Assembly (NCBI RefSeq): GCF_021545785.1
Contig: NZ_CP079801.1
Coordinates: forward strand, 2,826,057-2,890,056
DNA length: 64,000 bases
From: Halopseudomonas maritima
GTDB lineage: Bacteria; Pseudomonadota; Gammaproteobacteria; Pseudomonadales; Pseudomonadaceae
Direction: 5' to 3'
Shown here: positions 12,657 through 45,105 of the stretch, in pieces
Layout: each line of letters opens with the position of its first letter
How positions within the stretch are numbered: position 1 is the first letter of the stretch
Program-made: the position numbers and the translations under genes
The notes under the pieces: model-generated
Told to the model about the DNA's origin: nothing
Seen by the model: only the letters and a program-made list of their open reading frames with translations
The model's database searches: none

Positions 12657-12684
12657 GCAAGCCTGGTGGAGCGAACAGGCTGTG

Positions 12685-13014: not shown

Positions 13015-13134
13015 GGCGGGTGTCCATGGTGTTGAGGCTATCAGGGGCGAGTAGTCTGGAGGCACTCGGCATCTGCCAGCGACTGGGGTTGGTGGTTTGC
13101 AGACAGGGCGGCGGGGAGCCGCCCTGCGTTGAAC

Positions 13135-13467
13135 TTAGTCCATGTCATCCAGGGTAAAGACGACATCGTCACGGGCGACGTCGATTTCCCATACGGTGTA
13201 GGTGTCGCCGTCCTCGTCCTTGGCGCGAATGTCAAAGATGGAGGACTTGGCACCGCGCAGGTTGACCCGCACTGTGTGGCCGTCAGGCAGAATGTCCTCA
13301 TCCAGCACGTCTTCTTCCCAGCTCTTGGACTTGGCGTGGCTCACATACAGGTAATAGATGTCGTAGCCGGTGTCGTTGGTCACCTCGACATAGCCATCGA
13401 AGCCGGCGGCTGCGGGGCCGCTAAACAGGCATAGGACGGCAAACAGCGCTAAGGCTTTTTTGATCAT
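13135..13467 (-). CDS. Small secreted protein, paralog B (unknown function)
   Basis: 110 aa from ATG 13467 (GGGAGAG SD); signal peptide MIKKALALFAVLCLFSGPAAA; same motif set as paralog A. Confidence 0.6.
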   Translation of the reverse strand: MIKKALALFAVLCLFSGPAAAGFDGYVEVTNDTGYDIYYLYVSHAKSKSWEEDVLDEDILPDGHTVRVNLRGAKSSIFDIRAKDEDGDTYTVWEIDVARDDVVFTLDDMD

Positions 13468-16470: not shown

Positions 16471-16473
16471 AGT

Positions 16474-17604
16474 ATGGCTGAGCCACGGCGCATCGCCCTG
16501 ATGCCCGGCGACGGCATTGGTCAGGAGGTCATGACCGCCGCTGCCGAGGTGCTGCAGGCGCTGGATAAGCAAACGCCACTGGGCCTGACCTGGGATTGGC
16601 TGGAGTGGCCCTCGACCGACTGGCACCGGCGGCATGGCGAGATGATGCCGGTCGATGCCATGACCCAGGTGCAGGCTTACGACGCGCTGTTGATGGGCGC
16701 GCTGGGCGACCCGGGGCCGCTGACTGATGCAGGCCGCTACTGCCTGCCCGACAGCGTTTCGCTGTCGCCGCTGCTGCAGTTTCGCAAGGGCTTGGGGTTG
16801 TGGGCCTGCGAGCGGCCGGCCCGGTTGCTGCCCGGCGCGCCCCAGTATCTGGCCGATGCGCGCGCCGCCGAGGTCGACATGCTGGTGATTCGCGAGAATA
16901 GCGAGGGCGAGTACGTTAATCAGGGCGGTCGCCTGCACCGGGGCACGTCCGATGAGGTTGCCACCCAGCTGGAGGTATTTACCCGCCGCGCTACCGAGCG
17001 ACTGATTCGCCATGCTTTTGTCCGCGCCCGTGAGCGGCTGGAGGCGCGGGGGGCAGAGACGCGGCACTTTCACTGCGCAGACAAGGGCCGTGCTGGTGCA
17101 CAGGTATGCCTGATTACCAAGCGCAATGCCCAGCCCTACTGGGGCGATATGTACACCGAGGTGTTTGCCGAGATTGCCGCCGCGTTCCCCGAGATAGGTG
17201 TGCACCATGAGCTGGTTGACGCGGCCTGCATGAAGTTTGTGCAGTGCCCCTGGACCTTTGACGTGGTGGTGGCGAGCAACTTGCATGGAGACATTCTGAC
17301 GGATCTGGCCGCCGTGCTCTCGGGCGGACTGGGGCTGGCGCCGTCGTGCAATATCAATCCGGACAGCCGTGCCATGCCCGCGCTGTTCGAACCCACACAT
17401 GGCAGTGCGCCGGATATCGCCGGCCAGGGGCTCGCAAACCCTGCTGCCATGCTGCTCACCACAGCCCTGATGCTGGACTGGGTGGGCTGCGCACAGGCTG
17501 CCGAACGCCTGCGCCAAGCGGTTGCCAAGGATCTGGCGACCACAGCTGGCCAGCGGCGGACCTGTCGGGATGTGACTGCCGGCGTGATTGCCGCGCTGCA
17601 CTGA
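16474..17604 (+). CDS. Tartrate dehydrogenase/decarboxylase-like enzyme (isocitrate/isopropylmalate dehydrogenase family)
   Basis: 376 aa; IALMPGDGIGQEV N-terminus and the C-terminal NLHGDILTDLAA motif of beta-decarboxylating dehydrogenases. Confidence 0.8.
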   Translation: MAEPRRIALMPGDGIGQEVMTAAAEVLQALDKQTPLGLTWDWLEWPSTDWHRRHGEMMPVDAMTQVQAYDALLMGALGDPGPLTDAGRYCLPDSVSLSPLLQFRKGLGLWACERPARLLPGAPQYLADARAAEVDMLVIRENSEGEYVNQGGRLHRGTSDEVATQLEVFTRRATERLIRHAFVRARERLEARGAETRHFHCADKGRAGAQVCLITKRNAQPYWGDMYTEVFAEIAAAFPEIGVHHELVDAACMKFVQCPWTFDVVVASNLHGDILTDLAAVLSGGLGLAPSCNINPDSRAMPALFEPTHGSAPDIAGQGLANPAAMLLTTALMLDWVGCAQAAERLRQAVAKDLATTAGQRRTCRDVTAGVIAALH

Positions 17605-26707: not shown

Positions 26708-28030
26708 TCAATGCTTGACGGAGCTGAGTGCCTGCGTGTGGGTGTTGAGGTCTTCGCCCAGGCGATACTGGTTGTTGCCGCTGCGCTTGGCGGCATACAT
26801 CGCCAGGTCGGCGGCGTGGATCAGCTTGTCCATGGTCGGGGCATGTTCGGGGAAGAGTGCGACCCCGAGGCTGGCGCCAATGCGGTAATCGCGCCCTTGC
26901 AGCGTCATGGCAGGCGCCAGGCTGGTGAGCAGCTTTGCGCTGATGCGCTCGGCCTCCGCGCCGACCTCGGTGCTGCGTGACAGCCCTTCGAGCAGCACGA
27001 CAAACTCGTCACCGCCCAGACGCGCGACCATGTCGCTGCTACGCACAGCGCTGCGTAGGCGTTGCGCGACTTCCACCAGCACAGTGTCACCGGCGGCGTG
27101 GCCGTGCTGGTCGTTGATGAACTTGAACTTGTTGAGATCGATGAACACCAGCGCCAGGCGGCTGTTCTGGGCGCGGGCGCGTGTAATCGCTGCGCCGAGC
27201 TGCTGTTCGAGCATCAGGCGGTTGGGCAGGCCGGTCAGTGGGTCCTTGTGGGCGAGCTGGCGCAGCTCCTGGGCTGAGCGCTTTTCGTCGGTGATGTCGC
27301 GCACGACACCCATCATCCTGATGGCCTCGCCTTGCTCGTTCTTGATCACGTTGCCGGTTTCCCTGACCCAGTGCACGCTGCCGTCTGGCCAGACCACACG
27401 GTATTCCTCGTCGTGGTTCTCGCCGGTTTCGATGCAGCGGATCTCACCAGCGCGTACGCGCTCGCGATCATCAGGGTGCACGCTGTTGCAGAACAGGCTG
27501 TAGCTGGGTGTCACCGCCCCCGGCTGGTAGCCGAACATGCCGTAAATGGCTTCCGACCAATACAGCCGGTCGGTGTCGATCTCCCAGTCCCAGGTGCCGA
27601 TTTGGGCAAAATACTGGCTACGCTTGAAGCGCTCCATGGTCTCGGCGCTGGACTGCAGGTCGGTCTCGGGGTGCAGTAGCAGCACCGTCTGGCCGTCGAT
27701 GTCGGGCAGGCGAGTCAGATCCTGCTGGCGCAGGCCCTGTGATGTCGGCAACTGCAGCTCGATACGCTCCAGGGGGGCGGGCATGGCGGTCAGCGCTGGC
27801 AGCCAGCGGCTGATCGGCAAGTCTGCTCGCAGCTGTTGTGCAGACTGTTCGAGCAGACGACGCGCTGAAGGGTTGTGCCAGCGGATGCGGTGCCGGCCGT
27901 CGAGTATCAGCAGGCCGTTGGGTGACAGCTCCAGTAGTGCCTTGAACGTGGATGCCCGCCTGCGACTGCGCTGCAAGGCCAGGCCTGCGAGCAGTAAGAG
28001 CATGGATAGGGCAGTCAACAAAAGGGTCAT
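26708..28030 (-). CDS. Membrane-anchored PAS-GGDEF diguanylate cyclase
   Basis: PAS domain then GGDEF (RLGGDEFVVLL), the inhibitory-site RxxD present; start taken at ATG 28030 (TM helix LLLTALSMLLLLAGLAL). GTG 28141 is the alternative. Confidence 0.75.
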   Translation of the reverse strand: MTLLLTALSMLLLLAGLALQRSRRRASTFKALLELSPNGLLILDGRHRIRWHNPSARRLLEQSAQQLRADLPISRWLPALTAMPAPLERIELQLPTSQGLRQQDLTRLPDIDGQTVLLLHPETDLQSSAETMERFKRSQYFAQIGTWDWEIDTDRLYWSEAIYGMFGYQPGAVTPSYSLFCNSVHPDDRERVRAGEIRCIETGENHDEEYRVVWPDGSVHWVRETGNVIKNEQGEAIRMMGVVRDITDEKRSAQELRQLAHKDPLTGLPNRLMLEQQLGAAITRARAQNSRLALVFIDLNKFKFINDQHGHAAGDTVLVEVAQRLRSAVRSSDMVARLGGDEFVVLLEGLSRSTEVGAEAERISAKLLTSLAPAMTLQGRDYRIGASLGVALFPEHAPTMDKLIHAADLAMYAAKRSGNNQYRLGEDLNTHTQALSSVKH

Positions 28031-28172
28031 TGGGTTATCAGGCAGCGACGATTTGCCGCAGTATAACGCGGCGGCGAGGGCAGGCCATCCCGTAGTGGCA
28101 ATTTGCTTTGATGGCAGCTGAACCACCGGCGCTGGCAGCACTCACAGTTATACAGGTGCGCGGGAGCGAGAC

Positions 28173-28670: not shown

Positions 28671-28871
28671 AAACGCCGAACTGTGCGCGGGTAGGCTTTT
28701 CTTTGTCTGACGCGCCCAGGGCTGCTGTAGTTAAATAGCCAGTGCACGGATCGCGCCTTCTCTCACGCCGCCTGGAAGCGCCCGCCTTTTTACTGATCCG
28801 TCCCTCTTGTACTGCCTGTCTGAGCCGGTCTTTGTGCCTCTTCCGGCGTCGCCTGAAAAGTGTCTTTAAAA

Positions 28872-28909
28872 TCATCACATGTAATTCATTGCATTGTTAC
28901 ATGTGATGA
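28872..28909. promoter_or_regulatory. Perfect 13-bp inverted repeat TCATCACATGTAA-N12-TTACATGTGATGA, 15 bp upstream of the yjfI-like start codon; putative operator of the PspA/flotillin/ATPase/PLD operon
   Basis: Seen directly, in the only strongly AT-rich patch of this region. Each arm carries an ACATGT palindrome. Confidence 0.6.
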
Positions 28910-28923
28910 ACTAGTCTCGCTGT

Positions 28924-29544
28924 ATGGAAAAGAAATCATCTGCCTACTATCAACGACTGTATCGTCAGCGCTTGCGTGAGCAGGGGCTGGTCAAGAAGGA
29001 AGTCTGGATATTGCCCGAGCATGCCTCTGCGCTCATGGCAGTAGAACGAAAGCTGCGCCAGCCGATGGCCCAGCTGGACGCAATGGAGAAGGAGATAGAC
29101 ATGAGCATGCAGCAGGTTTGGAGTGCCACGGCGTTGCATAAGGCCTTGAGCGGCACCGAGTTGTTTCAGGGCAAGCGCGCCAGTGTGGAACTGATTGACG
29201 GCAGCGAAGCCAGCTTGCACGTCACCATGCATGACTACGGTGATTTGCCGCTGTTTGTTGCCGTGTTTGGCGAGCAGATCATCGTTGAAGCCTTGTTGTG
29301 GCCGGTGAGTGATGTGCGTGATCTGGCTGAGTTTAATGAAGAGGTGCTGCGCACCCACAAGCTCTTTCCGCTGTCGAGCATCGGCCTGGAGCGTCTGGCC
29401 GACGGCACCGATTGCTACACGATGTTTGGTGCCTTGAGTTCTGGCTCGGCCCTGTCTGATGTGGTGTTCGAGATCGAGCTGCTGGCGGATAACGTGATCA
29501 AGGCGACCGAGGCCTACGAGAACCACCTGGTGATGCAAGCCTGA
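28924..29544 (+). CDS. YjfI-like (DUF2170) protein with an extra 55-aa basic N-terminal extension
   Basis: 206 aa; sits in the position of E. coli yjfI just before the yjfJ-type PspA; the C-terminal two-thirds resemble DUF2170. The N-terminal KK/RR-rich segment could bind nucleic acid. Confidence 0.45.
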   Translation: MEKKSSAYYQRLYRQRLREQGLVKKEVWILPEHASALMAVERKLRQPMAQLDAMEKEIDMSMQQVWSATALHKALSGTELFQGKRASVELIDGSEASLHVTMHDYGDLPLFVAVFGEQIIVEALLWPVSDVRDLAEFNEEVLRTHKLFPLSSIGLERLADGTDCYTMFGALSSGSALSDVVFEIELLADNVIKATEAYENHLVMQA

Positions 29545-29558
29545 CAAGGAGAAAGCTG

Positions 29559-30254
29559 ATGAACGTGTGGAGCAAATTGCTGACTGCAATGCGTGGTGGC
29601 GCCCATGAGGCAGGCGAGGCGCTGGTCGACAGCCAGGCGCTGCGTATCCTCGATCAGGAAATTCGTGATGCTGATGCCGAGTTGCACCGGTCCCGCGAAG
29701 CGCTGGCCAATATCATGGCCAAGCAGAAGCTGGCAGCGGACAAGTTGAGCAAGGTCTCGGCGCGCGTCGCTGAGTATGAGCAGTATGCGCTCAAGGCGCT
29801 GGAGTCTGGTGACGAGGCGCTGGCGCGTGAAGTTGCCGAGAAGATCGCAGGCCTGGAAAACGAGGCAAAGCTGGAGTCCGAGCAGGCTGAGGCCTATGCC
29901 ACCAGCGTGGCCAATCTGCGTCAGGCGGTGCAGCAGGCCGAAGGCAATATCAAGCGTCTGAAGCAGCAGGTTGATGTGGTCAAGGCTACCGAGAGCGTGC
30001 AGAAGGCGCAGCTTGCGGTGTCACAACGCTACGGCGGCTCTCAGGCCAAGATGCACACCGCGCTGGAATCGCTGGAGCGTATCAAGCAGAAGCAGGCCGA
30101 GCGTGGCGCCCGCATGGAAGCCGCGGCGGAGCTTGCGGTCGAGGGCAGCCCAGACCAGGCGCTTGAAGAAAAGCTGCGGGCGGCGGGCATTACGCCGGCC
30201 TCCGGCAGTGCGGACAGCGTGCTGGCACGCCTGAAGCAGCGCTCCGATAGCTAA
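29559..30254 (+). CDS. PspA/IM30-family protein (YjfJ-like, ESCRT-III-like), copy 2
   Basis: 231 aa coiled-coil; MNVWSKLLTAMRGGAHE...ALRILDQEIRD N-terminus matches copy 1 and the PspA family; 14 bp after the upstream gene. Confidence 0.85.
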   Translation: MNVWSKLLTAMRGGAHEAGEALVDSQALRILDQEIRDADAELHRSREALANIMAKQKLAADKLSKVSARVAEYEQYALKALESGDEALAREVAEKIAGLENEAKLESEQAEAYATSVANLRQAVQQAEGNIKRLKQQVDVVKATESVQKAQLAVSQRYGGSQAKMHTALESLERIKQKQAERGARMEAAAELAVEGSPDQALEEKLRAAGITPASGSADSVLARLKQRSDS

Positions 30255-30280: not shown

Positions 30281-30922
30281 ATGGAGCTTTTCTTTCAGAC
30301 GTCGCTGACGTTTCCGGTGGTGCTGTTCAGCTTCATGCTGTGCGTGGCCCTGTTGTATTGGCTGACGGTAGCGCTGGGCGCGGTGGATGTTGACGTGCTG
30401 GATGCCGGCGGTGACGGCGGCATGGACGACCCGTCCAATGCCGAGGGGCTGGGTGGCCTGCTGATGAAGCTGGGCCTGCATGAGGTCCCGCTCACGCTGG
30501 TACTGACGGTGCTGGTGTTCTTTGCCTGGCTGGCCAGTTACTTCGCGCAGCTGTTGCTGCTGGGCTGGCTGCCGTTAGGGCTATTGCGCTACCCCGTGGG
30601 CCTGGTGGTGATCGTGCTGGCGCTGGTGGTGGCTGTGCCTGTCACCCGGCTGGTGGTGGCGCCGTTGCGACCGCTGTTTCGCAAGGTATTGGGTTCGACC
30701 ACGCGCTCGTTGCTGGGGCAGGTGGTGGTGGTGCGCTCGCCGCTGGTCAGTGATCGACTGGGCGAGGCGGTGATGGAAGACGGCGGTGCGGGCCTGATCC
30801 TGCGTGTGCGCGCGGACCCGGCGCTGGGGTTCAAGCGTGGCGACCGCCTGGTCCTACTGGAATACCTGGAGGCGGAGCACGCCTATCGGGTGATCGGTGA
30901 AGACGAATTTAACGGGAAATAG
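30281..30922 (+). CDS. YqiJ/DUF1449-like inner-membrane protein (NfeD-like C-terminal OB-fold; partner of flotillin)
   Basis: 213 aa; N-terminal TM, acidic DAGGDGGMDDPS loop, 2-3 further TMs, C-terminal beta-rich ...GDRLVLLEY...YRV domain as in E. coli YqiJ; immediately before the flotillin gene. Confidence 0.6.
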   Translation: MELFFQTSLTFPVVLFSFMLCVALLYWLTVALGAVDVDVLDAGGDGGMDDPSNAEGLGGLLMKLGLHEVPLTLVLTVLVFFAWLASYFAQLLLLGWLPLGLLRYPVGLVVIVLALVVAVPVTRLVVAPLRPLFRKVLGSTTRSLLGQVVVVRSPLVSDRLGEAVMEDGGAGLILRVRADPALGFKRGDRLVLLEYLEAEHAYRVIGEDEFNGK

Positions 30923-30976
30923 TGCGAGACGGCACTATTCAGGTGCTGTGTTGCCCTGCAAAGGAGTTTGAGCGTA

Positions 30977-33025
30977 ATGAGTATGTCTATGGTAATGCCC
31001 TTCCTGATCGGGGTCGGTATTGTCTTTCTGCTGATCGTCGGTTTTTTTGTCCTGTTCAATGCGTTCTACATCAAGGTGCCCCAGGGCACGGCGTTGATTG
31101 TGAACGATATGAGCTCTACCCCCAAAGTGCACTTCACCGGGGCGCTGGTTTATCCAGTGATCTACAAGAAAGAGTTCATGAAAATCTCCCTGCTGACGCT
31201 CGAAGTGGATCGACGTGGCAAGGATGGGCTTATCTGTCAGGACAACCTGCGAGCTGATATCACCGTTGCCTTCTATCTGCGGGTAAACGAGACCCAGCAG
31301 GACGTGCTCAAGGTGGCCAAAGCAATTGGGGTGGACCGAGCCTCTGACCGCACCGCCGTCAATGAGCTGTTCAACGCCAAATTCTCCGAAGCGCTGAAGA
31401 CGGTCGGTAAAAAGTTTGAATTTGTCAGCCTGTTTGAAGAGCGTCAGAACTTCCGTGACCGCATCATCGAGGTCATCGGCAACGACCTGAACGGCTATGT
31501 GCTGGAAGACGTTGCAATCGATTACCTCGAGCAGACGCCGCGCACCTCGCTTGACCCCACCAACATTCTTGATTCCCAGGGTATTCGCAAGATTACCGAG
31601 CTGACTGCAACCCAGAACGTGATCACCAACGAGCTGGAGCGCAACGAAGAGCTGGCGATCATGAAGAAGAACGTCGAAACCCGCGAAGCGACGCTGGCAC
31701 TGGAACGCCAGCAGGCGGATGCCGAGGCGCGCCAGCAGCGTGAAATCGAAACCATTCGGGCGCGTGAGCAGGCCGAAACTGTCAAGGTGCAGGAAGAAGA
31801 GCGCCTCAAGGCTGAGCAGGCGCGTATCCAGACCCAGCAGGATCTGGATATTCGCAGCGAGAACCACCACCGCGAAGTCGAGGTGGCCCAGCAGAATCGC
31901 CAGCGCGCTGTGGTAATCGAGGTTGAGAAAGTAACCCGTGCGCGTGATCTGGAAGTGGTCGCTCGCGAGCGTGAAGTTGAACTGCAGCGCATCGAGAAAG
32001 AAAAGGCGCTGGAGGAAGAACGCAAGAATATTGCCGGCGTGATTCGCGAGCGTGTTGCGGTCGAGAAAACCGTGGCGCAGGAAGAGGAGCGCATCAAGGA
32101 AGTACGCGAAGTCGCCGAGGCCGATCGCCAGAAGCAGGTTCAGGTGCTCAATGCACAGGCCGAGGCAGAGCAGGAGCTGGTGCGGCAGGTCAAGCAGGCC
32201 GAGGCCGATGAAACCAAGTCGCGCCACAAGGCTGTCGAGATGAATAACCTGGCCCAGGCCGAGCTGGAAGCGGCTGCCAAGCAGTCCGAGGCGGCCAAGA
32301 AGCGCGCCGAAGGTACGCAGGCAGAAGCCGCTGCCAATGGCCTGGCTGCGGCCCGTGTGCGCGAAGTGACCGCCGCCGCCAAAGAGAAGGAAGGTCTGGC
32401 CGAGGCGCGCATCCAGTCCGAGCAGTTGATTGCTCAGGCCAAGGGCGAGCAGGAGCAGGGGCTGGCGCAAGCGCGGGTGATCGAGGCGCAGGCGGCTGCG
32501 AAGGAGAAAGAAGGTCTGGCAGAAGCCAAGGTGCTGGAAGAAAAGCTCACCGCACAGGCGCGCGGCGAAGAGCAGCTTGGTGTGGCCAAGGCCCGCGCGG
32601 CCAAGGATCAGGGGCTGGTCGAGGCCGAAGTATTGCTGGAGCGCCTCAACGCCGAAGCCGAAGGTCTGGGCAAAAAGTTCTCCGCACTCGATGCGCTCAG
32701 TGCCGACGCCCGTCAGCACGAAGAGTTCCGCATGCAGCTTGAGAAGAGCTTCGAAGAAGCGATGGCCGCCATCGCCGCCAATAAGGACATTGCGCGGGAT
32801 CAGGCAGAGGTACTGTCGACAGCACTCGGCAAAGCCAATATCGAGATCGTGGGCGGGGAGGGTGACTTCTTCAACTCCTTTGCCAAGTCGCTGTCGGTGG
32901 GCAAGGCCATCGAAGGTGTGGTCGGCAAGAGCCCGGTCGTGCAGGACGTGCTGCAACGGCTGCTGGCCGGTCGTGGCAACGGTGATATGCCGAGCGTCGC
33001 CAACAAGGGCGACGCAGAGGCCTGA
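30977..33025 (+). CDS. Flotillin-family SPFH/band-7 protein (YqiK-like) with an extended repetitive coiled-coil tail
   Basis: About 682 aa from ATG 30977 (AAGGAG SD 10 nt upstream); N-terminal TM then SPFH domain then ~400 aa E/A/K/R-rich coiled coil including a 40-aa internal tandem repeat (AAAKEKEGLAEA...). Confidence 0.85.
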   Translation: MSMSMVMPFLIGVGIVFLLIVGFFVLFNAFYIKVPQGTALIVNDMSSTPKVHFTGALVYPVIYKKEFMKISLLTLEVDRRGKDGLICQDNLRADITVAFYLRVNETQQDVLKVAKAIGVDRASDRTAVNELFNAKFSEALKTVGKKFEFVSLFEERQNFRDRIIEVIGNDLNGYVLEDVAIDYLEQTPRTSLDPTNILDSQGIRKITELTATQNVITNELERNEELAIMKKNVETREATLALERQQADAEARQQREIETIRAREQAETVKVQEEERLKAEQARIQTQQDLDIRSENHHREVEVAQQNRQRAVVIEVEKVTRARDLEVVAREREVELQRIEKEKALEEERKNIAGVIRERVAVEKTVAQEEERIKEVREVAEADRQKQVQVLNAQAEAEQELVRQVKQAEADETKSRHKAVEMNNLAQAELEAAAKQSEAAKKRAEGTQAEAAANGLAAARVREVTAAAKEKEGLAEARIQSEQLIAQAKGEQEQGLAQARVIEAQAAAKEKEGLAEAKVLEEKLTAQARGEEQLGVAKARAAKDQGLVEAEVLLERLNAEAEGLGKKFSALDALSADARQHEEFRMQLEKSFEEAMAAIAANKDIARDQAEVLSTALGKANIEIVGGEGDFFNSFAKSLSVGKAIEGVVGKSPVVQDVLQRLLAGRGNGDMPSVANKGDAEA

Positions 33026-33086
33026 TTCACCCTTTCGCTTGCGCCCCGGCATGGCTGGGGCGTTGCATTGCTAAGCCAATTCGGGA

Positions 33087-36000
33087 ATGACGAGGATGTC
33101 AGAGTCAGCAGGCGAAGATCAGGCACAGGGCCTGGTTGATCGGGCTGTAGCTGAAGGCGGTGCCTACGAGGTGTTGCACAAGCGGCTGCTGGAACAGGGG
33201 CGGCAACTTGCCGGCCTGGCCGAAGCACTGAATGCCCAGCGGCAGCAGGAGTTTGGCAGTCAGCCGATTGAAGTGATTGGTCGCACGCGCGTGCGCACTG
33301 AGAACAACTGCATCGCACGCGATATCGCCCAGGTCGGCGGGCTGATGCTGTTCGGCTACAACGTGTTTATCGGGCTCAAGCAGGAAACCCGGGTACAGGA
33401 CGTTTTCTCCCTTTATCGGCTGGTTCAGCAGGATGGCGAGTACGACGCTCAGGCTGTCGATCTGGCCGGCAGCTTTCTGGCCGAGGCCAGCTTCGTCAAC
33501 GACTTTGACGAGCTCTATCGCTACTACAAGAACACGCGGCTGCTGCAACTGAGCGTGCGTGACGGCAAGTTGCTGGCGGCCTTCCAGATTGGCGAGCGGA
33601 TCAGCGATGTGCGCGTCTTCCGCTGGTCGGTGTCGGCTGATGGCGGTCAGGTGCGCTACATCGATAACCGCGGTGAGCGTGACATTCAACTGCCGCGCCC
33701 CTTTGATTTCGAGTGGACAGCCGCCGGCCGCGACGCTGTGGTGCAGGGCCGCCACTCGCATTTCAATATTCTCGATACCCTGTTTGTCGACACCCTGGGT
33801 GGTGACCTGACCGTCAAGGTGGAGAACAACACCGAGGACGGCCTGGGTATCTACCGCGAGCCGGTTGCCGACAAGACCCAGTCGCTGAATGATGTGCAGA
33901 TCGAGTACGCACACCTGGGCACCCTGATTCTGCTGAAGGTGCTGCCGTACCGTGAGGAGCAGTGGCGTTATCTGGTATTCAATACCCTGACGCGCAAGGT
34001 ACAGCGCATCGATGCGATTGGGCAGGCCTGCGTGCAGCTGCCGGAAGATCACGGCATCATCTTCCCGGGCGGCTGCTATCTGCAAAGTGGCGAGTACCGC
34101 ACCTTTGATCAGCCCATGGACGGCATGCGCTTCAAGCGCTCTGTCCGCTCGCCCAACGGCGAGGATGTGCAGTACGTTTTCTACCACCCGGAGCAGGGCC
34201 GTTCGGCGCTGTTTACCTACAACCTGATCAGTCGCGAATTGCAGAGCCCGCAATTTGGCCACGGGCATGCGCGCCTGGCTGACGGGCGCATGGTGATCTT
34301 TTCTGCCGAAGGGGATGAGCCTACGCGCATCCATCCGATGCAAATCTGGCAGACGCCGTTCTATACCGATGAGCACGCGGCGACCCAGCCGCAACGCGGC
34401 GGCTTCTTTGGGCGCATAGGCAACGCCGAGCTGGTGCGCGGCGTATCTGACTTGCTCAATCTGGCGCGTGAGATCGACAGCAATGAGGTGTCGCTGCAGC
34501 GCTATGCGCTGCTGTGCCAGGAAACCCAGCGCCTGTTTGATGCCTATTACTGGCTCAGTGATGAGGCTTGTGGCGGCGTTGCCCCCTTGCTGCGGCAGAT
34601 ATCCTCCAGTGCGGCCATGGTGCTGGACGAGTTCGAGAAGGTCGAGAGTATTCGGCAGCAGTCAGCGCGGGCCATGACGGAGGCGCAGACACGTCAGCAG
34701 GAGCTGATGTCGGGCCTGTCGGTGCAGGAGTTCTCTGATGTTCAGGCCTACGTTGATGCGCTGGGGGCGCTCAATGCCCAGCGCGGCAAGCTGCTCACCA
34801 TTCGCGAGTATCGCTACATCAATGTTGCGCAGATCGACGAGATGGAAGCGCAGCTGCTTACCGAGCATGAGCGGTTGGCAGCAGAGGTGTCCAGTTTTCT
34901 GGCCGGCGAGCAGGCGCTGGCGCCTTATCACCAGCAGCTGCAGGCGCTCGATACCAGTGCTGAACAGGCTGAAACAGTCACTCAACTGGCGGAACCGCTG
35001 GAGCAATTGATCGCCATGGCGGCGGGCTTGGATATGCTGTCCGAGCTGATAGCGTCGCTGCGTATTGACGACGCTACCCAGCGCACCCGCGTGGTGGAGG
35101 CCATCTCTGAGCTGTACGCCAAGCTCAACCAGTCCAAGGCGCGAGCCGAGTTGCGGCGCAAGTCGCTTGGTTCGGCCGAGCAGGTGGCGCAATTTGGCGC
35201 CCAGTTCAAGTTGTTCAGCCAGGCAATTACCAATGCGCTGGCGCTGGCGCAGGACCCTGAGAGCTGTGATGAGCAGCTGTCGCGCCTGCTGGTTCAGCTG
35301 GAAGAGCTGGAGAGCCAGTTCGGTGGCCATGAGGCGTTTCTGAGTGACATCCTCGATAAACGAGAAGAACTACTTGAGACCTTCGAGGCCCATCGCCAGC
35401 GTCTGCTGGATGAGCGTCAGCGCCGTGCCCAGGGTCTGCAGGATGCCGCAGTACGCATCATCGACAGCTTGCCACGGCGCACCGGTCGGTTGACCGAGCC
35501 GGATCTGCTGAACGCCTTTTTTGCCACCGACCCGCTGATTCTCAAGCTGCGTGAGCTGATCGAGCGGCTGCGCGACCTGCACGACAACGTCAAGGCTGAT
35601 GATATTGAGGCGCGCCTCAAGGGTGCGCGGGATCAGGCGGTGCGTGGCCTGCGCGACAAGCGCGAGCTGTTCGAAGGTGGCGGAAATGTTATTCGGCTGG
35701 GGCCGCGTCACCGCTTCAGTGTCAATGCCCAGGAACTCGATCTGACCCTGCTGCCCCGTGGTGACTCGCTGAGCCTGCACCTGACGGGCACCGACTATTT
35801 TGAGCCCTTGGTCAATGACGAGCTGGACGCCCTGCGCGACTACTGGGATGGCGGCCTGCTGTCCGAGTCCCCGCAGCTGTATCGCGCCGAATACCTAGCC
35901 GGTGAGGTTATTGCGCTCGCTCAGCGTGCTGAAGCCGGCCTGAGCATGGAGCTGCTGCATCAGCAACTGCTGGAGCCTGAACACTTGGTACGCACGCTGC

Positions 36001-38312
36001 GCGAGATCGCGACGCCGCGCTATCGCGAGGGGTACGAGAAGGGGATTCACGATCACGACGCGGCGCTGATTCTGGCGCAGCTGCTGCCGCTGCTCGCCAG
36101 CGCCGGCCTGCTGCGTTTTGACCCGCAGGCGCGGGCGCTGGCAATGCTGTTCTGGGCGCAGAGTGCCGATACGCCGGCGGTGTCCGGCTGGGCTGAACGG
36201 GCCGCGGCCGTGCTGCAGATTCAGCAGTTGTTCGGGCGCGCCGACGCGCTGCTGCAATTACAGGGCGAGGTGCAGTCCAGCCTTGCTGAGTGGCTGCAAG
36301 GGCGCCTGATCGAGGCTGACAGCAGAACGCTGGCAGCCGCCGCCGCCTGGTTGATCGAGTGGCTGGCTGAGCCGCAGCCGATCTGGCAGGTCAGCCGGTA
36401 TGCCCAGCAGCTTTATGTTGGCCTGCAGGACTATCTGGCACCACTGGGTCTGTGGGACAGCTGCATGCAGTCGGTTGAGCGCCTGGCTGGCGCGCCGGGG
36501 CAGCAGTGGCAGTTTTTGCAGCACTGGTTTAGCGGCTTGTGTGAGCAGGACGATTTTGCCCCGCTGCGTCGTTACGTACCTGAAGCGGTTGCCTTATGTC
36601 TGCTGCAGCCGCAGGTTCAGGTGACCGTTGTCGAGGTTGACCTGCGGTTTGCGGTGTCTGGTCTGCTGGGACAGCACCCACGCGTGCGGGACGGAGCGCT
36701 GACGCTGGCGGTGGATGAGTTCTTTACTCGCCTACGTCAGCACCGGCAGGATTTTCAGCCGGGTCTGGAGCGCTATCAACAGTTGCGTCAGCAACTGCTT
36801 GATGAGCAGCGCAAGACGTTGCGGCTGGCTGAGTTCAAGCCGCGCCCGCTCACCTCCTTTGTGCGCAACCGCCTGATCAACGACGTGTATCTGGGCGTTA
36901 TCGGTGACAACCTCGCCAAGCAGATGGGTACTGTGGGTGAGGGGCGGCGCTCGGACCTGAACGGTCTGCTGATGCTGATTTCCCCGCCCGGTTACGGCAA
37001 AACCACGCTGATGGAGTATGTGGCGCACGCGCTGGGTCTGGTGTTCATGAAGATCAATGGGCCGGCGCTGGGACATGAGGTGCGCTCGCTGGATCCGGCG
37101 CAGGCGCCCGATGCGACGGCCGCGCAGGAGCTGGTCAAGCTCAATCTGGCGCTGGAGATGGGCAATAACGTGATGCTGTATGTCGATGACATTCAGCACA
37201 CCCACCCGGAGTTTCTGCAGAAATTCATCTCGCTGTGCGATGGCACCCGCCGTATTGAAGGCGTCTGGAAGGGGCGCACACGTACCTATGACATGCGCGG
37301 TCGCAAGTTTGCCGTGGTTATGGCTGGTAACCCCTACACCGAGTCCGGTGAGGTGTTCCGCATTCCGGACATGCTGGCCAACCGTGCCGACATCTATAAC
37401 CTCGGTGACACCCTGGCGGGTATGAATGATGTGTTCGCGCTCAGCTATATCGAGAACAGTCTGACCTCCAACTCCGTGCTCGCCCCCCTGGCTGGCCGCG
37501 ATCTGAACGACTTGTACCGCCTGGTAGCCAAGGCTGAAGGCAAGCCGTTCTCTGCCAATGAGTTGAGTTACGACTACAGCGCTGCGGAGATCAACGACAT
37601 GGTTGCCACCCTGCAGCGCATGATGCAGCTGCGTGATGTGGTGCTGCGGGTCAACCAGCAGTACATCGCCAGCGCCGCGCAGGATGATGGCTATCGCACC
37701 GAGCCGCCGTTCAAGTTGCAGGGCAGTTATCGCAACATGAACAAGCTGGCGGAGAAGGTGTCGGCGGTGATGAACGAGCAGGAACTGCAGCAACTGGTCG
37801 ACGATCACTACCAGGGCGAGTCGCAGCTGCTGACCACCGGGGCAGAGGAGAACCTGCTCAAGCTGGCCGAGTTGCGCGGCACGCTGAATGCAGAACGTGC
37901 CGAGCGCTGGCGACAGATCAAGGCAGATTTTCTGCGCAATCGCGCGATGGGTGGTGACGACGCGGATGTAGGCAAGCGCGTGGTCGGTCAGCTGAGCGAT
38001 CTGGTGCAGAGCGTGCGCGCCTTGGCCGGCTCTGGGCAGTCGGAGGTGGCTGTGCCCTGGGATGAGCTGCTCGCTGCGTTGCAGTCGCTGCACAAGCTGA
38101 GCCCCAAGGTGCGTGTCGTGATGCCGCCCCAGCAGCTGATTCAGCAGATGCTCGACGGGCTGTCGGACAGCATGCGCGCAACAGTGACCCCACTGGCTGA
38201 TGTGATGGACCGTCAGGTGGTGGCCGGGCGGGAGGCGCAGACCCAGTTGCTCGACATTGTGCGGCAACTGAAGGTCGTGACCCTGGATGACCAGGATGAC
38301 AGCAAACCATGA
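33087..38312 (+). CDS. Giant 1741-aa protein: beta-rich N-terminal region, ~750-aa helical region, C-terminal MoxR/AAA_5-type (dynein-related) AAA+ ATPase domain
   Basis: Walker A LISPPGYGKTTL (nt ~36985-37020); Walker B VMLYVDDIQHT (~37165-37200); sensor-1 AVVMAGNPYTESG and arginine RIPDMLANRADIYNL (~37310-37400). Stop overlaps the start of the PLD gene (ATGA). Confidence 0.8.
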   Translation: MTRMSESAGEDQAQGLVDRAVAEGGAYEVLHKRLLEQGRQLAGLAEALNAQRQQEFGSQPIEVIGRTRVRTENNCIARDIAQVGGLMLFGYNVFIGLKQETRVQDVFSLYRLVQQDGEYDAQAVDLAGSFLAEASFVNDFDELYRYYKNTRLLQLSVRDGKLLAAFQIGERISDVRVFRWSVSADGGQVRYIDNRGERDIQLPRPFDFEWTAAGRDAVVQGRHSHFNILDTLFVDTLGGDLTVKVENNTEDGLGIYREPVADKTQSLNDVQIEYAHLGTLILLKVLPYREEQWRYLVFNTLTRKVQRIDAIGQACVQLPEDHGIIFPGGCYLQSGEYRTFDQPMDGMRFKRSVRSPNGEDVQYVFYHPEQGRSALFTYNLISRELQSPQFGHGHARLADGRMVIFSAEGDEPTRIHPMQIWQTPFYTDEHAATQPQRGGFFGRIGNAELVRGVSDLLNLAREIDSNEVSLQRYALLCQETQRLFDAYYWLSDEACGGVAPLLRQISSSAAMVLDEFEKVESIRQQSARAMTEAQTRQQELMSGLSVQEFSDVQAYVDALGALNAQRGKLLTIREYRYINVAQIDEMEAQLLTEHERLAAEVSSFLAGEQALAPYHQQLQALDTSAEQAETVTQLAEPLEQLIAMAAGLDMLSELIASLRIDDATQRTRVVEAISELYAKLNQSKARAELRRKSLGSAEQVAQFGAQFKLFSQAITNALALAQDPESCDEQLSRLLVQLEELESQFGGHEAFLSDILDKREELLETFEAHRQRLLDERQRRAQGLQDAAVRIIDSLPRRTGRLTEPDLLNAFFATDPLILKLRELIERLRDLHDNVKADDIEARLKGARDQAVRGLRDKRELFEGGGNVIRLGPRHRFSVNAQELDLTLLPRGDSLSLHLTGTDYFEPLVNDELDALRDYWDGGLLSESPQLYRAEYLAGEVIALAQRAEAGLSMELLHQQLLEPEHLVRTLREIATPRYREGYEKGIHDHDAALILAQLLPLLASAGLLRFDPQARALAMLFWAQSADTPAVSGWAERAAAVLQIQQLFGRADALLQLQGEVQSSLAEWLQGRLIEADSRTLAAAAAWLIEWLAEPQPIWQVSRYAQQLYVGLQDYLAPLGLWDSCMQSVERLAGAPGQQWQFLQHWFSGLCEQDDFAPLRRYVPEAVALCLLQPQVQVTVVEVDLRFAVSGLLGQHPRVRDGALTLAVDEFFTRLRQHRQDFQPGLERYQQLRQQLLDEQRKTLRLAEFKPRPLTSFVRNRLINDVYLGVIGDNLAKQMGTVGEGRRSDLNGLLMLISPPGYGKTTLMEYVAHALGLVFMKINGPALGHEVRSLDPAQAPDATAAQELVKLNLALEMGNNVMLYVDDIQHTHPEFLQKFISLCDGTRRIEGVWKGRTRTYDMRGRKFAVVMAGNPYTESGEVFRIPDMLANRADIYNLGDTLAGMNDVFALSYIENSLTSNSVLAPLAGRDLNDLYRLVAKAEGKPFSANELSYDYSAAEINDMVATLQRMMQLRDVVLRVNQQYIASAAQDDGYRTEPPFKLQGSYRNMNKLAEKVSAVMNEQELQQLVDDHYQGESQLLTTGAEENLLKLAELRGTLNAERAERWRQIKADFLRNRAMGGDDADVGKRVVGQLSDLVQSVRALAGSGQSEVAVPWDELLAALQSLHKLSPKVRVVMPPQQLIQQMLDGLSDSMRATVTPLADVMDRQVVAGREAQTQLLDIVRQLKVVTLDDQDDSKP

Positions 38313-38995
38313 TGGACTTTCAGCAACTTGACCAGGTGTTGCGCGACAGCGTGGCCGATTTGCGTATGAGCAATGAGGAGCGAGTGGAGCTGCGAGAGCT
38401 GGGCAGTGGTCTCGAACCTGACCGCATCCGTTTTTTGCGCAATCGCGCCTTTGCACTGGTACGAGAGCTTGCAGCCGAGCCGGAAAACGTGATGTCGGCA
38501 CTGAAATGGCTTGAACAGGTGGTGAAGACGTTGGACACCTCGCAGGCAAACGAGGTGCAGGTGGCCAGTGCCCATTTCAGCCCGGGCGAGAGCTGCCGGC
38601 GGCGGATTCTGGACTTGTGCAACCAGGTGCGTGACAGCCTGAGTATCTGCGTCTTCACCATCTCCGATGATCGCCTCAGCCGCGCAGTGCTGGCCTGCCA
38701 TCAACGCGGGGTCAAGGTGCGAATCATCAGCGACCATGAGAAGCAGCACGACATGGGCAGCGATATCGCCATGCTGCGTGATGAAGGTATTCCGCTGCGG
38801 GTCGATCCCGGCCCCTACCACATGCACCACAAGTTCGCCCTGTTTGATGATCGAATCCTGCTCAACGGCAGTTTCAACTGGACGCGCAGCGCCAGTGATT
38901 ACAACCAGGAGAACCTGCTGGTGATCGACCATGTGCCGCTGGTCGCCGATTACGTACGTGAGTTCGAAGGCCTCTGGCAGCGTTTCGCGGTGTGA
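38309..38995 (+). CDS. Single-HKD phospholipase-D-superfamily protein (Nuc/Zucchini-like endonuclease fold)
   Basis: 228 aa; one HxK(x)4D(x)6GSxN motif (HMHHKFALFDDRILLNGSFNWTRSA, nt 38821-38895); ~90-aa helical N-terminal extension; translationally coupled to the giant ATPase. Confidence 0.8.
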   Translation: MMDFQQLDQVLRDSVADLRMSNEERVELRELGSGLEPDRIRFLRNRAFALVRELAAEPENVMSALKWLEQVVKTLDTSQANEVQVASAHFSPGESCRRRILDLCNQVRDSLSICVFTISDDRLSRAVLACHQRGVKVRIISDHEKQHDMGSDIAMLRDEGIPLRVDPGPYHMHHKFALFDDRILLNGSFNWTRSASDYNQENLLVIDHVPLVADYVREFEGLWQRFAV

Positions 38996-41796: not shown

Positions 41797-42819
41797 TGTG
41801 ATCTTTCAGTAGGTTGTTCATTCGGGACATACCCGGCAGATTGGAGGTGCGAAACAACAAGCCCCCGGAGTCCCGAATGAACAATCACAAAAATGCCCGA
41901 TTAACTGTCCATGGTCGAGCCCTTTTGATCACTCGTATCCTTGAAGATGGTCTGCGCCCCTGCGAAGCTGCACAAGCGATGGGGGTCAGCCTGCGTACCG
42001 CTTACAAGTGGCTCGCGCGCTACAAAAACGAAGGCCACGACGGGCTGCACAATCGTTCTTCCCGACCTCGCTATTGCCCGCATGAAACGCCACCTGATCA
42101 GCAACAGCAGATCATTGAACAGCGCCGCGAGCGCCGAGTTTATAGGCATATCAGCGCCCAGGTAGGCGTGAGCGTCGCCACTATCGGCCGAGTTTTACGA
42201 CGAGCTGGCCTGAACCGGCTGAGTGCGCTTGAGCCTGCGCGGCCGACCAATCGATATGAGCACGACAACCCTGGCGACCTGTTGCACTTGGATATCAAGA
42301 AGCTGGCACGCTTCCGGCGCCCCGGTCACCGTGTCACAGGTGAGTTCAAAGGGAAGTCGCACGGCGCAGGCTGGGAGTACATCCACATAGCCATTGACGA
42401 CCATAGCCGTGTTGCGTGGGCAACGACTCATCCTGACGAGACGGCTGCCAGTGCATGGCGTGCGCTGACTAGCGCCATTCGCTACTACCGGTCACTCGGG
42501 ATACGTATTCAGCGCTTGCTGACGGACAACGGTAGCTGCTATCGCTCCGCGCTGTTTGCACGCGCTTGCCGACGACTGGGGCTCAAGCATGGCCGCACGC
42601 AGCCCTATACGCCACGAACCAACGGCAAGGCCGAGCGCTGGATACAAACGGCATTACGGGAGTGGGCTTATGCTCGTTCTTACGACGACTCTGAGCAAAG
42701 AGCAGATCATCTAAATGCATGGCTACATCAGTACAACTGGCATCGCCCACACTCAGCTATCGGTGATCTGCCACCTATCAGCAGGCTGCCGAAGATGAAC
42801 AACCTACTGGCTTTACACA
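41797..42819 (+). mobile_element. IS481-family insertion sequence (1023 bp) with 6-bp CCTAGG target-site duplication
   Basis: Imperfect terminal IRs TGTGATCTTTCAGTAGGTTGTTCAT / ATGAACAACCTACTGGCTTTACACA resemble the IS481 ends (TGTGAAGATTCAATAGGTTGT...). Direct repeats CCTAGG at 41791-41796 and 42820-42825. Insertion at a CTAG site; the transposase TAG stop is supplied by the target. Confidence 0.85.
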
Positions 42820-42824
42820 CCTAG
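41877..42824 (+). CDS. IS481-family DDE transposase (integrase core domain)
   Basis: 315 aa; N-terminal HTH (MNNHKNARLTVHGRALLITRILEDG...) and rve-type DDE catalytic core (HLDIKKL...DNGSCY...E). Confidence 0.9.
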   Translation: MNNHKNARLTVHGRALLITRILEDGLRPCEAAQAMGVSLRTAYKWLARYKNEGHDGLHNRSSRPRYCPHETPPDQQQQIIEQRRERRVYRHISAQVGVSVATIGRVLRRAGLNRLSALEPARPTNRYEHDNPGDLLHLDIKKLARFRRPGHRVTGEFKGKSHGAGWEYIHIAIDDHSRVAWATTHPDETAASAWRALTSAIRYYRSLGIRIQRLLTDNGSCYRSALFARACRRLGLKHGRTQPYTPRTNGKAERWIQTALREWAYARSYDDSEQRADHLNAWLHQYNWHRPHSAIGDLPPISRLPKMNNLLALHT

Positions 42825-42834
42825 GGGCCAGTTA

Positions 42835-45105
42835 GTGGCGGATCTGAAACAGAAGTTGCTCAATATGCAGCGCCAGCTTGGGCTCAACCCTGATGAGGTA
42901 CGCCAGCGGTTGCGCCTGTTGCTGATGGGGGACGCGGGGTTTGACTGCCTGGCCGCGCATCTGCCGGCGCTGGACCGCTTGCACGCCGACTGCATCGAAG
43001 GGTTGCTGGCGCATCTCAACAGTATTGAAGGGAGCGCCGCGCTGCTCGCCTCGTCTGGTCGCACAGAGCAGCTGCAGGGGCTGCAGAAGGGCTACTTTCA
43101 GCAGCTGCTGCGTGGCCCTTACGACATGCAGTACGTACGTTTGCGGCTGCTGGTGGGGTTAGCCCATCAGCGCCTGGGCGTGGAGCTCAAGTGGTATCTG
43201 GCGGCCTTCCATTTCTATCTGGATTTCATGCACAAGGCGATCAACCGTCACTGGCGCAGCGAGCCCAAGCTGGCCGAGCAGTTGTACGGCTGCCTGCTCA
43301 AGTCCGCCTTTTTCGACATTTCTCTGACCGCCGATACCTATATTGCTGCTGACAAGCAGGCGTTGCAGGCCAGCGAAGACCGCTATGCACGCGCGGTGCG
43401 TGGCGCCAACGACGGGCTTTGGGAGTGGCATGTCGAAGACGACCGCCTGTATCTGTCTGACCGTTGGCTAGCCATGCTTGGGCTGGATGCCGCTCGCGCT
43501 CCGCGTAGCTTGAGCGACTGGGCGGCGCTGATCCCCGAGGCGCAGCGGGGCGACTTTCTGGCAGCACTGCAGGCCCACCTGGATGGACGGCAGGCGTTTT
43601 TGCATGTCGAGTGCCAGCTGCGCGATAGCTGGGGGCGCCTGATCTGGGTGATGATTCGCGCTGTTGCTTCCACCGACCGTCAGGGAGAGCGCCTGCTCGC
43701 GGGTTCGCTCACGGATATCAGTCAGCGCAAGCAAACCGAGCAGGCGTTGGCGCATCAGGCGTTGCATGATGCGCTGACCGGCCTGCCTAACCGGCAGCAG
43801 GTTGGTGCGTTGCTCAGTCAGGCGCTGCAGCGTCAGGGTAAGCCTGGAGCCCGGCATGCTGCGGTGCTGTTTATCGATCTGGATCGTTTCAAGCTGATCA
43901 ACGAAAGCCTGGGTCATCAGACCGGCGATCAGGTGTTGATTCAGGTTGCCAAGCGCATCGAGCGTTGTCTGCGCCCCGGTGATCACCTGGGGCGCTTTGG
44001 CGGGGACGAGTTTGTCGTTTTGCTGGATGACCTGGCCCAGCCGCATGATGCCGAACTGGTCGGTCAGCGCATCATGCACGCCTTGCAGTATCCAATCGTT
44101 GCCGGATCGCGCCGGCTTGCGGTCAGCGTCAGCATTGGCGTGGCACCCATGAAAGACCACGGCGATGAACAGGACGCTTTGCGTGAGGCTGACCTGGCGC
44201 TGTACCGCGCCAAGGCCTATGGCAAGGGGCAGCTGGCGCTGTACAACGACAGTCTGCAGGAAGAGGCGACTCAGCGGCTCAATCTGGAAAATGCCCTCAG
44301 TGAAGCGCTGAGCCGTGACCAGTTCGAGCTGTACTATCAGCCCATCGTCCAGGTGTCGGCCGGCCGCACGCTGGTGGTTGGGGTAGAGGCGCTGCTGCGC
44401 TGGTGGCAGGGCGAGCGGATGGTGCCGCCGGATGAGTTTATTCCGGTGCTGGAGGAGTCTGGTGAGATCGTCGCGGTGGGCGAGTGGGTGCTGCGTCAGG
44501 CCTGCACCCAGGTTCGTCAGTGGCACTCGCAGGGTCTGGCCGGGTTGCGATGTTCGGTTAATCTCTCCAGCCGCCAGCTGCAAGAGCCGGGTTTTGCCGA
44601 CCGGGTGGCGCAGATTCTCAAGGAAACCGGCTTGCCACCCGCGAGTCTGGTGCTGGAAATAACCGAAAGCCTGCTGATGCGTGACGGGCCAGACACGCTG
44701 GCGACATTGCGCGAACTGGAAAGCATGGGTGTACGCATTGCGCTGGATGATTTTGGCACCGGCTTCTCCTCGCTGGGTTACCTGCATCGCTATCCGCTGC
44801 ACATCATCAAGGTCGACAAGAGCTTTATCACCAAGGCTCCCAACGACGAGCGGCTCAAAGCCATCAGTCGAGCCATCATCGGGCTGGGCAAGGGGCTGGA
44901 CATGGACGTGATTGCCGAAGGTATCGAAACGCCCGAGCAGATGGATTTTCTGCATAACGAGGGCTGCCAGTTCGTGCAGGGCTACTGGTTCAGCCGGCCG
45001 CAGTCGGCGGCTGTCATCCACCCTGTGCTGCAGCGGTTGTCGGTGATTGACTCACCGGAGACCTCGCTGCTGGAGCTGAGTCCGGCAACTGCTATAGTGC
45101 AGTGA
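42835..45105 (+). CDS. Globin-coupled sensor - PAS - GGDEF - EAL multidomain c-di-GMP turnover protein
   Basis: 756 aa; N-terminal sensor-globin fold with proximal-His motif (LAHQRLGVELKWYLAAF); PAS; GGDEF (RFGGDEFVVLL) with RxxD; EAL (EALLRW ... DDFGTGFSSL ... EGIE). Start (GTG 42835, or ATG 42865) lies 10 bp after the IS481 target duplication. Confidence 0.85.
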   Translation: MADLKQKLLNMQRQLGLNPDEVRQRLRLLLMGDAGFDCLAAHLPALDRLHADCIEGLLAHLNSIEGSAALLASSGRTEQLQGLQKGYFQQLLRGPYDMQYVRLRLLVGLAHQRLGVELKWYLAAFHFYLDFMHKAINRHWRSEPKLAEQLYGCLLKSAFFDISLTADTYIAADKQALQASEDRYARAVRGANDGLWEWHVEDDRLYLSDRWLAMLGLDAARAPRSLSDWAALIPEAQRGDFLAALQAHLDGRQAFLHVECQLRDSWGRLIWVMIRAVASTDRQGERLLAGSLTDISQRKQTEQALAHQALHDALTGLPNRQQVGALLSQALQRQGKPGARHAAVLFIDLDRFKLINESLGHQTGDQVLIQVAKRIERCLRPGDHLGRFGGDEFVVLLDDLAQPHDAELVGQRIMHALQYPIVAGSRRLAVSVSIGVAPMKDHGDEQDALREADLALYRAKAYGKGQLALYNDSLQEEATQRLNLENALSEALSRDQFELYYQPIVQVSAGRTLVVGVEALLRWWQGERMVPPDEFIPVLEESGEIVAVGEWVLRQACTQVRQWHSQGLAGLRCSVNLSSRQLQEPGFADRVAQILKETGLPPASLVLEITESLLMRDGPDTLATLRELESMGVRIALDDFGTGFSSLGYLHRYPLHIIKVDKSFITKAPNDERLKAISRAIIGLGKGLDMDVIAEGIETPEQMDFLHNEGCQFVQGYWFSRPQSAAVIHPVLQRLSVIDSPETSLLELSPATAIVQ

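Follow-up and report, generated by a model that had tools for sequence, protein, structure and literature searches.

BacE of Halopseudomonas maritima, a MoxR-like AAA+ protein encoded beside a flotillin-like scaffold gene and a candidate motor of that scaffold

The gene bacE lies in a 64,000-nucleotide stretch of Halopseudomonas maritima (contig NZ_CP079801.1, positions 2,826,057 to 2,890,056 of the forward strand; hereafter the window) and encodes a DUF3686/DUF7902/MoxR-like AAA+ protein of 1741 amino acids. This open reading frame (ORF) had been put forward in an earlier reading of the bare DNA letters, here called the original prediction, and is borne out with an ATG start on the plus strand (Table 1). 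NCBI places the start at the second ATG (33096), giving 1738 amino acids, and its entry ‘DNA repair ATPase [Halopseudomonas maritima]’ (P0001) is 100% identical to the window protein; the suspicion that homologs might carry such a name was therefore right. The protein is the Halopseudomonas ortholog of P. aeruginosa BacE (PA3728/PA14_16190), product of the fifth gene of bacABCDEF: the two share 69% identity, a nearly equal length (1741 and 1746 amino acids) and the same Pfam architecture in collinear loci. The P. aeruginosa gene likewise stands between a flotillin-like gene and a PLD gene with yaeQ and recJ downstream, and we see no substantive difference between the two beyond the change of genus. 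BacE shows all the features by which the family is recognized, namely DUF3686, DUF7902, the AAA+ motifs, the flotillin/YqiJ context and the synteny of bacE, and the family counts at least 5,599 proteins. Both family and operon context have been described already (Ravi et al. 2024, PMC11237479; Wallart et al. 2024, PMC10948618), and our result for the window is mainly the re-identification of a catalogued family, not a discovery. What is added here is a quantification of the flotillin linkage, the structural placement of the putative motor near CbbQ and NorQ, the confirmation of a divergent propeller and the finding that the database name is unsupported.

The genes bacA to bacD precede bacE on the same strand and bacF follows it (Table 1); yaeQ and then recJ lie further downstream, recJ at a distance of 1.3 kb. 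BacA scores 351 bits with the NCBIfam equivalog ‘biofilm formation regulator BacA’, above the cut-off of 300, and BacC has a weak YqiJ_N match (E=0.06). BacD consists of one N-terminal transmembrane segment, an SPFH domain and a long E/A/Q-rich coiled coil. Its Band_7 match (E=2e-4) reaches 21.8 bits, just below the cut-off of 23.6, and the full-length query gives no match at all, so that the link to flotillin is invisible to automated annotation. In P. aeruginosa the same eight genes stand in the same order (DUF2170, PspA, a 213-amino-acid protein, a 688-amino-acid protein, DUF3686 ATPase, PLDc_2, YaeQ, RecJ), collinear with the window and with 60-85% identity per gene: 63% for BacA, 68% for BacB, 85% for BacD (PaFlo3/PA14_16180) and 73% for RecJ. 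BacD is the best conserved operon gene and retains 42-44% identity to its counterparts in Clostridium, Fusobacteriota and Bacteroidota; bacE exceeds all other operon genes in size by a wide margin and is among the most strongly conserved. In strain PA14 the first six genes were shown by reverse-transcription PCR to form one operon, bacABCDEF, in which PA14_16190 was named bacE and the PLD gene bacF (Wallart et al., PMC10948618). Ravi et al. (PMC11237479) described the operon independently, with the PLD in only some Proteobacteria and with abbreviated flotillin-YqiJ(-AAA+) operons in other lineages, and a 2026 study named the flotillin PaFlo3 and its NfeD partner, the BacC ortholog, ‘short NfeD’ (PMC13086221).

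Table 1. Genes of the bac operon in the window, segments and motifs of BacE, and the putative control region (window positions; aa, amino acids)
Feature	Position	Strand	Description
bacA	28924..29544	+	DUF2170/CesT-Tir-like, 206 aa; Pfam DUF2170 E=1e-53
bacB	29559..30254	+	PspA/IM30 (bacterial ESCRT-III-like), 231 aa; Pfam PspA_IM30 E=6e-54
bacC	30281..30922	+	YqiJ/short-NfeD-like membrane protein, about 3 transmembrane segments, 213 aa
bacD	30968..33025	+	flotillin-like SPFH protein, 685 aa
bacE	33087..38312	+	ATG start, 1741 aa; DUF3686/DUF7902/MoxR-like AAA+ protein
BacE propeller	33270..34352	+	aa 62-422; divergent beta-propeller, about 6-7 four-stranded blades, inside DUF3686 (AlphaFold2)
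BacE DUF7902	34911..35165	+	aa 609-693; inside the ~800-aa mostly helical middle (aa ~446-1250)
BacE AAA+ alpha/beta core	36954..37406	+	aa ~1290-1440
Walker A	36984..37007	+	PPGYGKTT, aa 1300-1307
Walker B	37176..37199	+	LYVDDIQH (DD type), aa 1364-1371
Sensor-1	37323..37349	+	AGNPYTESG, aa 1413-1421
Arginine-finger region	37359..37403	+	RIPDMLANRADIYNL, aa 1425-1439
Helical lid/C-domain	37425..37946	+	aa ~1447-1620; holds invariant QGSYR
Probable sensor-2	37716..37739	+	LQGSYRNM, aa 1544-1551
C-terminal tail	37947..38309	+	aa ~1621-1741; mean identity 0.08-0.18 across representatives; model confidence (pLDDT) below 60
bacF	38309..38995	+	single-HKD PLD-family protein (Nuc/NucT/DrmC-like), 228 aa; Pfam PLDc_2 E=5e-28
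Putative promoter/operator of the operon	28875..28916	+	two 10-bp palindromic boxes, TCACATGTAA and TTACATGTGA

The surroundings of bacE were compared across lineages in two ways. The neighbours from the window were searched by tblastn at 80 genomic loci from Gamma-, Beta- and Zetaproteobacteria, Myxococcota, Acidobacteriota, Actinomycetota and Clostridia, and as a second count all ORFs of 82 loci were clustered without supervision, covering about nine phyla overall. A flotillin-like gene stands directly upstream on the same strand at 78 of the 80 loci, the remaining two being cut by contig ends, and the clustering recovered it at 79 loci, that is at every locus with upstream DNA. The YqiJ-like gene was found at 71 loci by tblastn and at 74 by clustering. 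The corresponding figures are 38 (BacA) and 40 (DUF2170), 37 and 40 for PspA and 17 in both counts for the PLD, and yaeQ and recJ accompany bacE at 6/80 loci, all from the Pseudomonas group. Flotillin, not the PLD, is thus the invariant partner of BacE; at the gene level BacE has two obligate partners, BacD as the flotillin-like SPFH scaffold and BacC as the YqiJ/NfeD-like membrane protein, and the BacF PLD is a lineage-specific accessory. The core of YqiJ-like gene, flotillin-like gene and bacE was also present in Clostridium intestinale, Haliovirga (Fusobacteriota), Sphingobacterium (Bacteroidota) and a metagenome clade with 30% identity. A CesT-PspA pair lies upstream of the core in Sphingobacterium and TelA downstream of it in the metagenome clade. 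The recurrent accessory neighbours (TelA, rhomboid, LiaF/LytTR, CesT-PspA, TPM) are all membrane-related. The idea that BacE is a scaffold or remodeller tied to flotillin, already raised in the original prediction, is in its general form supported by these counts.

Several of these accessory genes deserve a brief description. In the clustering a TelA gene follows bacE at 12 loci, those of Xanthomonadales, and again in a distant clade, and a gene for a rhomboid intramembrane protease stands between bacE and the PLD gene at 11 loci, those of Pseudomonas. Coordinates of such genes downstream of bacE are 15259-15825 (locus L001), 16035-17132 (L013), 12001-13221 (L084) and 15457-16993 (L085), and the Sphingobacterium locus has two rhomboids nearby. 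In Clostridium intestinale (L081, 3990-5157) genes for LytTR and LiaF-like proteins, which are parts of the Lia/PspA-type envelope-stress circuitry of Firmicutes, directly precede the three-gene core.

The counts bear directly on another reading raised in the original prediction, in which BacE is a McrB-like NTPase motor that drives the PLD; the locus would then be an anti-phage or DNA-targeting one. McrB, of the McrBC restriction system, is an AAA+ protein of the same broad superclade, and in the window a nuclease-superfamily (PLD) gene does follow, its ATG overlapping the bacE stop (ATGA). The PLD is weakly similar to the defence nucleases NucT, DrmC, MkoC and DpdK, with the NucT and DrmC matches below cut-offs, and phage infection of P. 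aeruginosa co-induces PA3728-PA3732 (PMC12041424). Against this the PLD is present at 17/82 loci, compared with a flotillin-like gene adjacent at all 79 with upstream DNA, and PADLOC gave no match for BacE, BacA, BacC or BacD, weak matches for the PLD and coiled-coil noise for PspA. We therefore consider a motor dedicated to the PLD very unlikely. The BacE family had no match in 50,697 phage records and turned up in 13 of 72,556 plasmid records, the majority of them megaplasmids or chromids. The guanine-cytosine (GC) content of the bacE stretch is 0.585-0.62, within the window range of 0.551-0.653. With an identity near that of RecJ, a GC content within range, rarity on plasmids and absence from phages, BacE evolves like a housekeeping gene. 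Two known kinds of system were also tried and rejected for the locus: a McrB/McrBC-like system, which calls for a McrB-type fold encoded with an obligate McrC-type nuclease partner, a combination that was not found, and a known anti-phage system, which the PADLOC, phage, plasmid and GC results do not indicate.

A different partner is suggested by bacB. BacE could be a Vps4-like disassembly or recycling ATPase for the PspA/IM30 polymer formed by BacB, the flotillin serving only as a membrane platform. In archaea and eukaryotes ESCRT-III is taken apart by AAA+ motors, and as with Vps4/CdvC the gene of an AAA+ ATPase here accompanies that of a member of the ESCRT-III superfamily (PspA) in a setting of membrane remodelling. 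PspA is present in the window operon and at 40/82 loci, in Bacteroidota with another CesT-type partner, and in P. aeruginosa PspA and BacE respond together: in a bacA mutant of PA14 all operon partners are up 6-13 fold (PMC10948618), and PA3728-PA3732 rise together in a suppressor proteome (PMC13637947) as they do on phage infection. The proposal is weakened by the half of the loci that have no adjacent PspA, and we judge it unlikely as an account of the family.

BacE is soluble and cytoplasmic, has a mass of about 190 kDa and consists of an N-terminal divergent beta-propeller, a helical arm of about 800 residues and a C-terminal MoxR-like AAA+ module. The first ~1250 residues had been thought to match nothing that could be named, which proved wrong: DUF3686 (PF12458) covers residues 41-488 (33207-34550) with E=3.8e-200 and 665.5 bits against a cut-off of 25 (positions 2-448 of the 448-position profile), and DUF7902 (PF25472) matches with E=3e-28 and 98.2 bits against a cut-off of 26, both being domains of unknown function. 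A beta-rich block followed by helices had also been foreseen, and this layout holds in the AlphaFold2 model of the N-terminal region (predicted local distance difference test, pLDDT, 84), with strands at residues 62-422 instead of the limits 150-430 given before; a long helix (residues 10-56) precedes the propeller. Helices are further predicted by the structure models at residues 446-559 and 1209-1280. A scan of 1.84 billion representatives with residues 1-510 returned 749 relatives, the full-length members of which measure 1590-1930 amino acids. In the transmembrane scan of BacE only one marginal hydrophobic stretch was detected, at residues 991-1011 (36057-36119; AALILAQLLPLLASAGLLRF), with a Kyte-Doolittle value of 1.79 and with invariant G986, H988, D989 and D991 at and before its start; it may be a helix buried in the fold or may touch the membrane. 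A separate variant (L086, 7001-10123) is a 1040-amino-acid DUF3686 and DUF7902 protein with 37% identity to BacE residues 23-1070. It lacks the AAA+ module as well as a flotillin-like neighbour, adjoins Por-secretion-tail proteins in an 8.9-Mb genome and represents the N-terminal part in a rare form, either truncated or independent.

Within the C-terminal module the Walker A, Walker B, sensor-1 and arginine motifs named in the original prediction were all found where it had placed them. PPGYGKT is shared, at a similar position, by 68 of the 69 full-length proteins that represent clusters at 50% identity, and SPPGYGKTT, DDIQH, GNPY, PDML.NR and QGSYR do not vary in an alignment of 18 sequences with identities down to 32%; the thought that the Walker motifs might fail to be conserved in orthologs did not come true. 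Since the motifs are near-invariant across the family and the Pfam AAA_5 match (PF07728, residues 1295-1418) exceeds its gathering cut-off (29.6 bits against 22), they are far beyond chance. The segment 1251-1450 is the best conserved part of the protein, with 85-98% identity per 50-residue window among 120 close homologs. The model of residues 1190-1741 (pLDDT 76) shows the AAA+ strand order followed by a helical lid and a low-confidence tail, and predicts a beta-hairpin at residues 1389-1402, placed after helix 3 and before the sensor-1 strand, that corresponds to the pre-sensor-1 hairpin and carries a conserved aromatic in the family consensus GV[WY]xG. Among solved structures the fold is closest to the MoxR proteins (PS-II-insert clade) CbbQ (Rubisco activase) and NorQ (NO-reductase maturation), which agrees with the MoxR-like ATPase proposed before; the Pfam profiles are divided on this point, AAA_5 matching and AAA_3 not. 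Searches of the PDB with the BacE sequence and profile aligned only the P-loop, to RuvB, p97 and NVL, and are uninformative for the clade.

The nearest structures raise the possibility that BacE is a classical MoxR-style maturation chaperone that inserts a cofactor into, or activates, a membrane enzyme complex, with the flotillin microdomain concentrating the client; the AAA_5 match points in the same direction. MoxR ATPases of the canonical kind act together with a partner protein that has a VWA domain, and MoxR family members such as CbbQ, NorQ and RavA are stand-alone ATPases of about 300 residues paired with a VWA-domain adaptor. BacE, in contrast, has its AAA+ module fused to 1250 extra N-terminal residues, a Walker B of the DD type (hhhhDD) instead of the usual DE (hhhhDE), a PPGxGKT P-loop resembling those of classical AAA and RuvB proteins, and no AAA_3 match. 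In BacE itself no Pfam VWA match was obtained and only one triplet resembling DxSxS was seen in a check for a VWA domain or metal-ion-dependent adhesion site (MIDAS), and the 82 neighbourhoods contain neither a VWA/MIDAS partner nor a recurrent enzyme client. A maturation chaperone of this kind is in our estimation quite improbable.

The name carried by the databases would make BacE a DNA repair ATPase. It goes back to the description that Pfam attaches to PF12458, ‘ATPase involved in DNA repair’, which the NCBI name follows, and in the window recJ lies close downstream. The domain scans of BacE, however, revealed no DNA-binding, SMC, RecN or nuclease domain; the similarity to RuvB spans only ~40 residues around the P-loop, with 16 bits against a cut-off of 282 in one search and E about 0.006 in another; the adjacency of recJ and yaeQ is confined to the few Pseudomonas-group loci and is simple synteny; and all conserved partners of BacE are membrane proteins. 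Literature searches for DUF3686, PF12458 and DUF7902 found no paper, and none in support of the name. We hold a role in DNA repair to be extremely unlikely. Thousands of database entries are named ‘DNA repair ATPase’, and we found no supporting evidence for the name.

The DNA before bacA suggests how the operon might be controlled. The two palindromic boxes TCACATGTAA and TTACATGTGA, of the TTACATGTAA type, lie at -47 and -25 from the bacA ATG, with a -35-like TTGCAT between them. The -10-like TAGTCT that follows stops some 7 nt short of the start codon, and a Shine-Dalgarno sequence is lacking. Of 30 related loci, 29 have two or more ACATG-type boxes in the 100 nt before bacA, in most of these loci near -47/-25, against a background of 0.3% in random 100-nt windows; the loci include Pseudomonas (P. 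aeruginosa too), Lysobacter, Comamonas, Cellvibrionaceae and others, and also L083 (2670-2722). From these sequence features we suggest a repressor/operator-controlled, possibly leaderless sigma-70 promoter for bacA. Unlike what was proposed for P. aeruginosa, no match to the sigma-54 consensus with up to 2 mismatches was found in 28672-28923, and scans for generic sigma-70 promoters and for terminators did not exceed what shuffled sequence gives. A GC-rich stem-loop (33041-33062; GCGCCCC GGCATGGCT GGGGCGT), not followed by a T-run, lies in the 61 nt that separate the bacD stop from the bacE start and might tune how much scaffold, the abundant product, is made relative to the ATPase. The operon region is flanked by a PAS-GGDEF protein, confirmed by Pfam, and a probable GGDEF-EAL protein recognized by eye, and the ORF after recJ resembles an IS481-type transposase as judged from its sequence; these transposase-like and GGDEF-type genes occupy 41814-42824, 26708-28141 (minus strand) and 42835-45105.

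Membrane-active toxins of staphylococci induce the PspA-like PA3731 of P. aeruginosa. Taken together, the orthology, the gene linkage, the fold, the motifs and the expression of the P. aeruginosa operon lead us to propose that BacE is a cytoplasmic MoxR-like motor acting on the flotillin/NfeD (and PspA) membrane scaffold during membrane stress, a reading to which we give a probability of roughly 55%. By analogy with other MoxR-type ATPases such as NorQ, the AAA+ modules would form a ring. ATP hydrolysis would be coupled through the conserved pre-sensor-1 hairpin and a conserved loop after strand 2, and would serve to pull on or reshape a protein substrate. The propeller and helical arm may dock BacE onto the BacC/BacD flotillin assembly from the cytoplasmic side, where BacE could assemble, disassemble or remodel the scaffold, or the PspA/ESCRT-III-like BacB polymer recruited there, under membrane stress. 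BacF, like the rhomboid and TelA of other lineages, would then be an add-on output and not the core client of the motor. What the analysis shows directly is the identity of BacE, its orthology, its domain folds, the conservation of its motifs and its gene linkage; the oligomeric state, the ATPase activity, the contact with BacD and the direction of remodelling are what we infer along this line.

A number of points weigh against this proposal. It is gene order that suggests a contact of BacE with BacD, BacC or BacB, and the structure models cover BacE up to residue ~560 and from ~1190 onwards, on either side of a middle stretch of ~650 residues in the arm. The Pfam profile of MoxR proper, AAA_3 (PF07726), is not among the BacE matches at E<=0.01, and no VWA family occurs among the conserved neighbours of the 82 loci or in the Pfam-annotated loci. 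The DD Walker B could mean slow hydrolysis or a switch-like role, and the translational coupling of bacE to the PLD gene in the window may point to a lipid- or nucleic-acid-directed output. The searchable literature yielded no experiment on BacE, and deletion of paFlo3 (bacD) in PA14 had marginal phenotypes only (PMC13086221).

The motor proposed for BacE has a known likeness in the HflK/C-FtsH complex. There an SPFH cage houses an AAA+ machine with which it is functionally paired, and an NfeD-type partner is typical of SPFH operons. Both systems pair an SPFH-family scaffold genetically with an AAA+ ATPase at the inner membrane; FtsH, however, is a membrane-anchored AAA+ protease of the classical clade, whereas BacE is soluble, MoxR-like and without a protease domain, and most of BacD is predicted to lie in the cytoplasm, HflK/C in contrast being a periplasmic structure. 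The comparison is one of analogy only and implies no homology of the ATPases. A more specific form of the proposal, which we offer tentatively and with the odds somewhat against it, is that BacE is the dedicated, non-proteolytic, ATP-driven motor of the flotillin assembly: a MoxR-like ring with propeller-tipped arms that grip BacC/BacD and that opens, closes or recycles the scaffold and PspA polymers in membrane repair.

The operon, a medically relevant one that responds to envelope stress, joins three membrane-maintenance systems, PspA/ESCRT-III, flotillin/SPFH and NfeD, and in P. aeruginosa it affects biofilm, rhamnolipid production and virulence. If our hypothesis were correct, a dedicated BacE motor would extend the principle of an SPFH scaffold plus AAA+ machine, as in HflK/C-FtsH, to flotillins, and would give flotillin microdomains an energy source. 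A vague annotation is in this way replaced by the hypothesis of a bacterial flotillin scaffold with its own ATP-driven remodeller.

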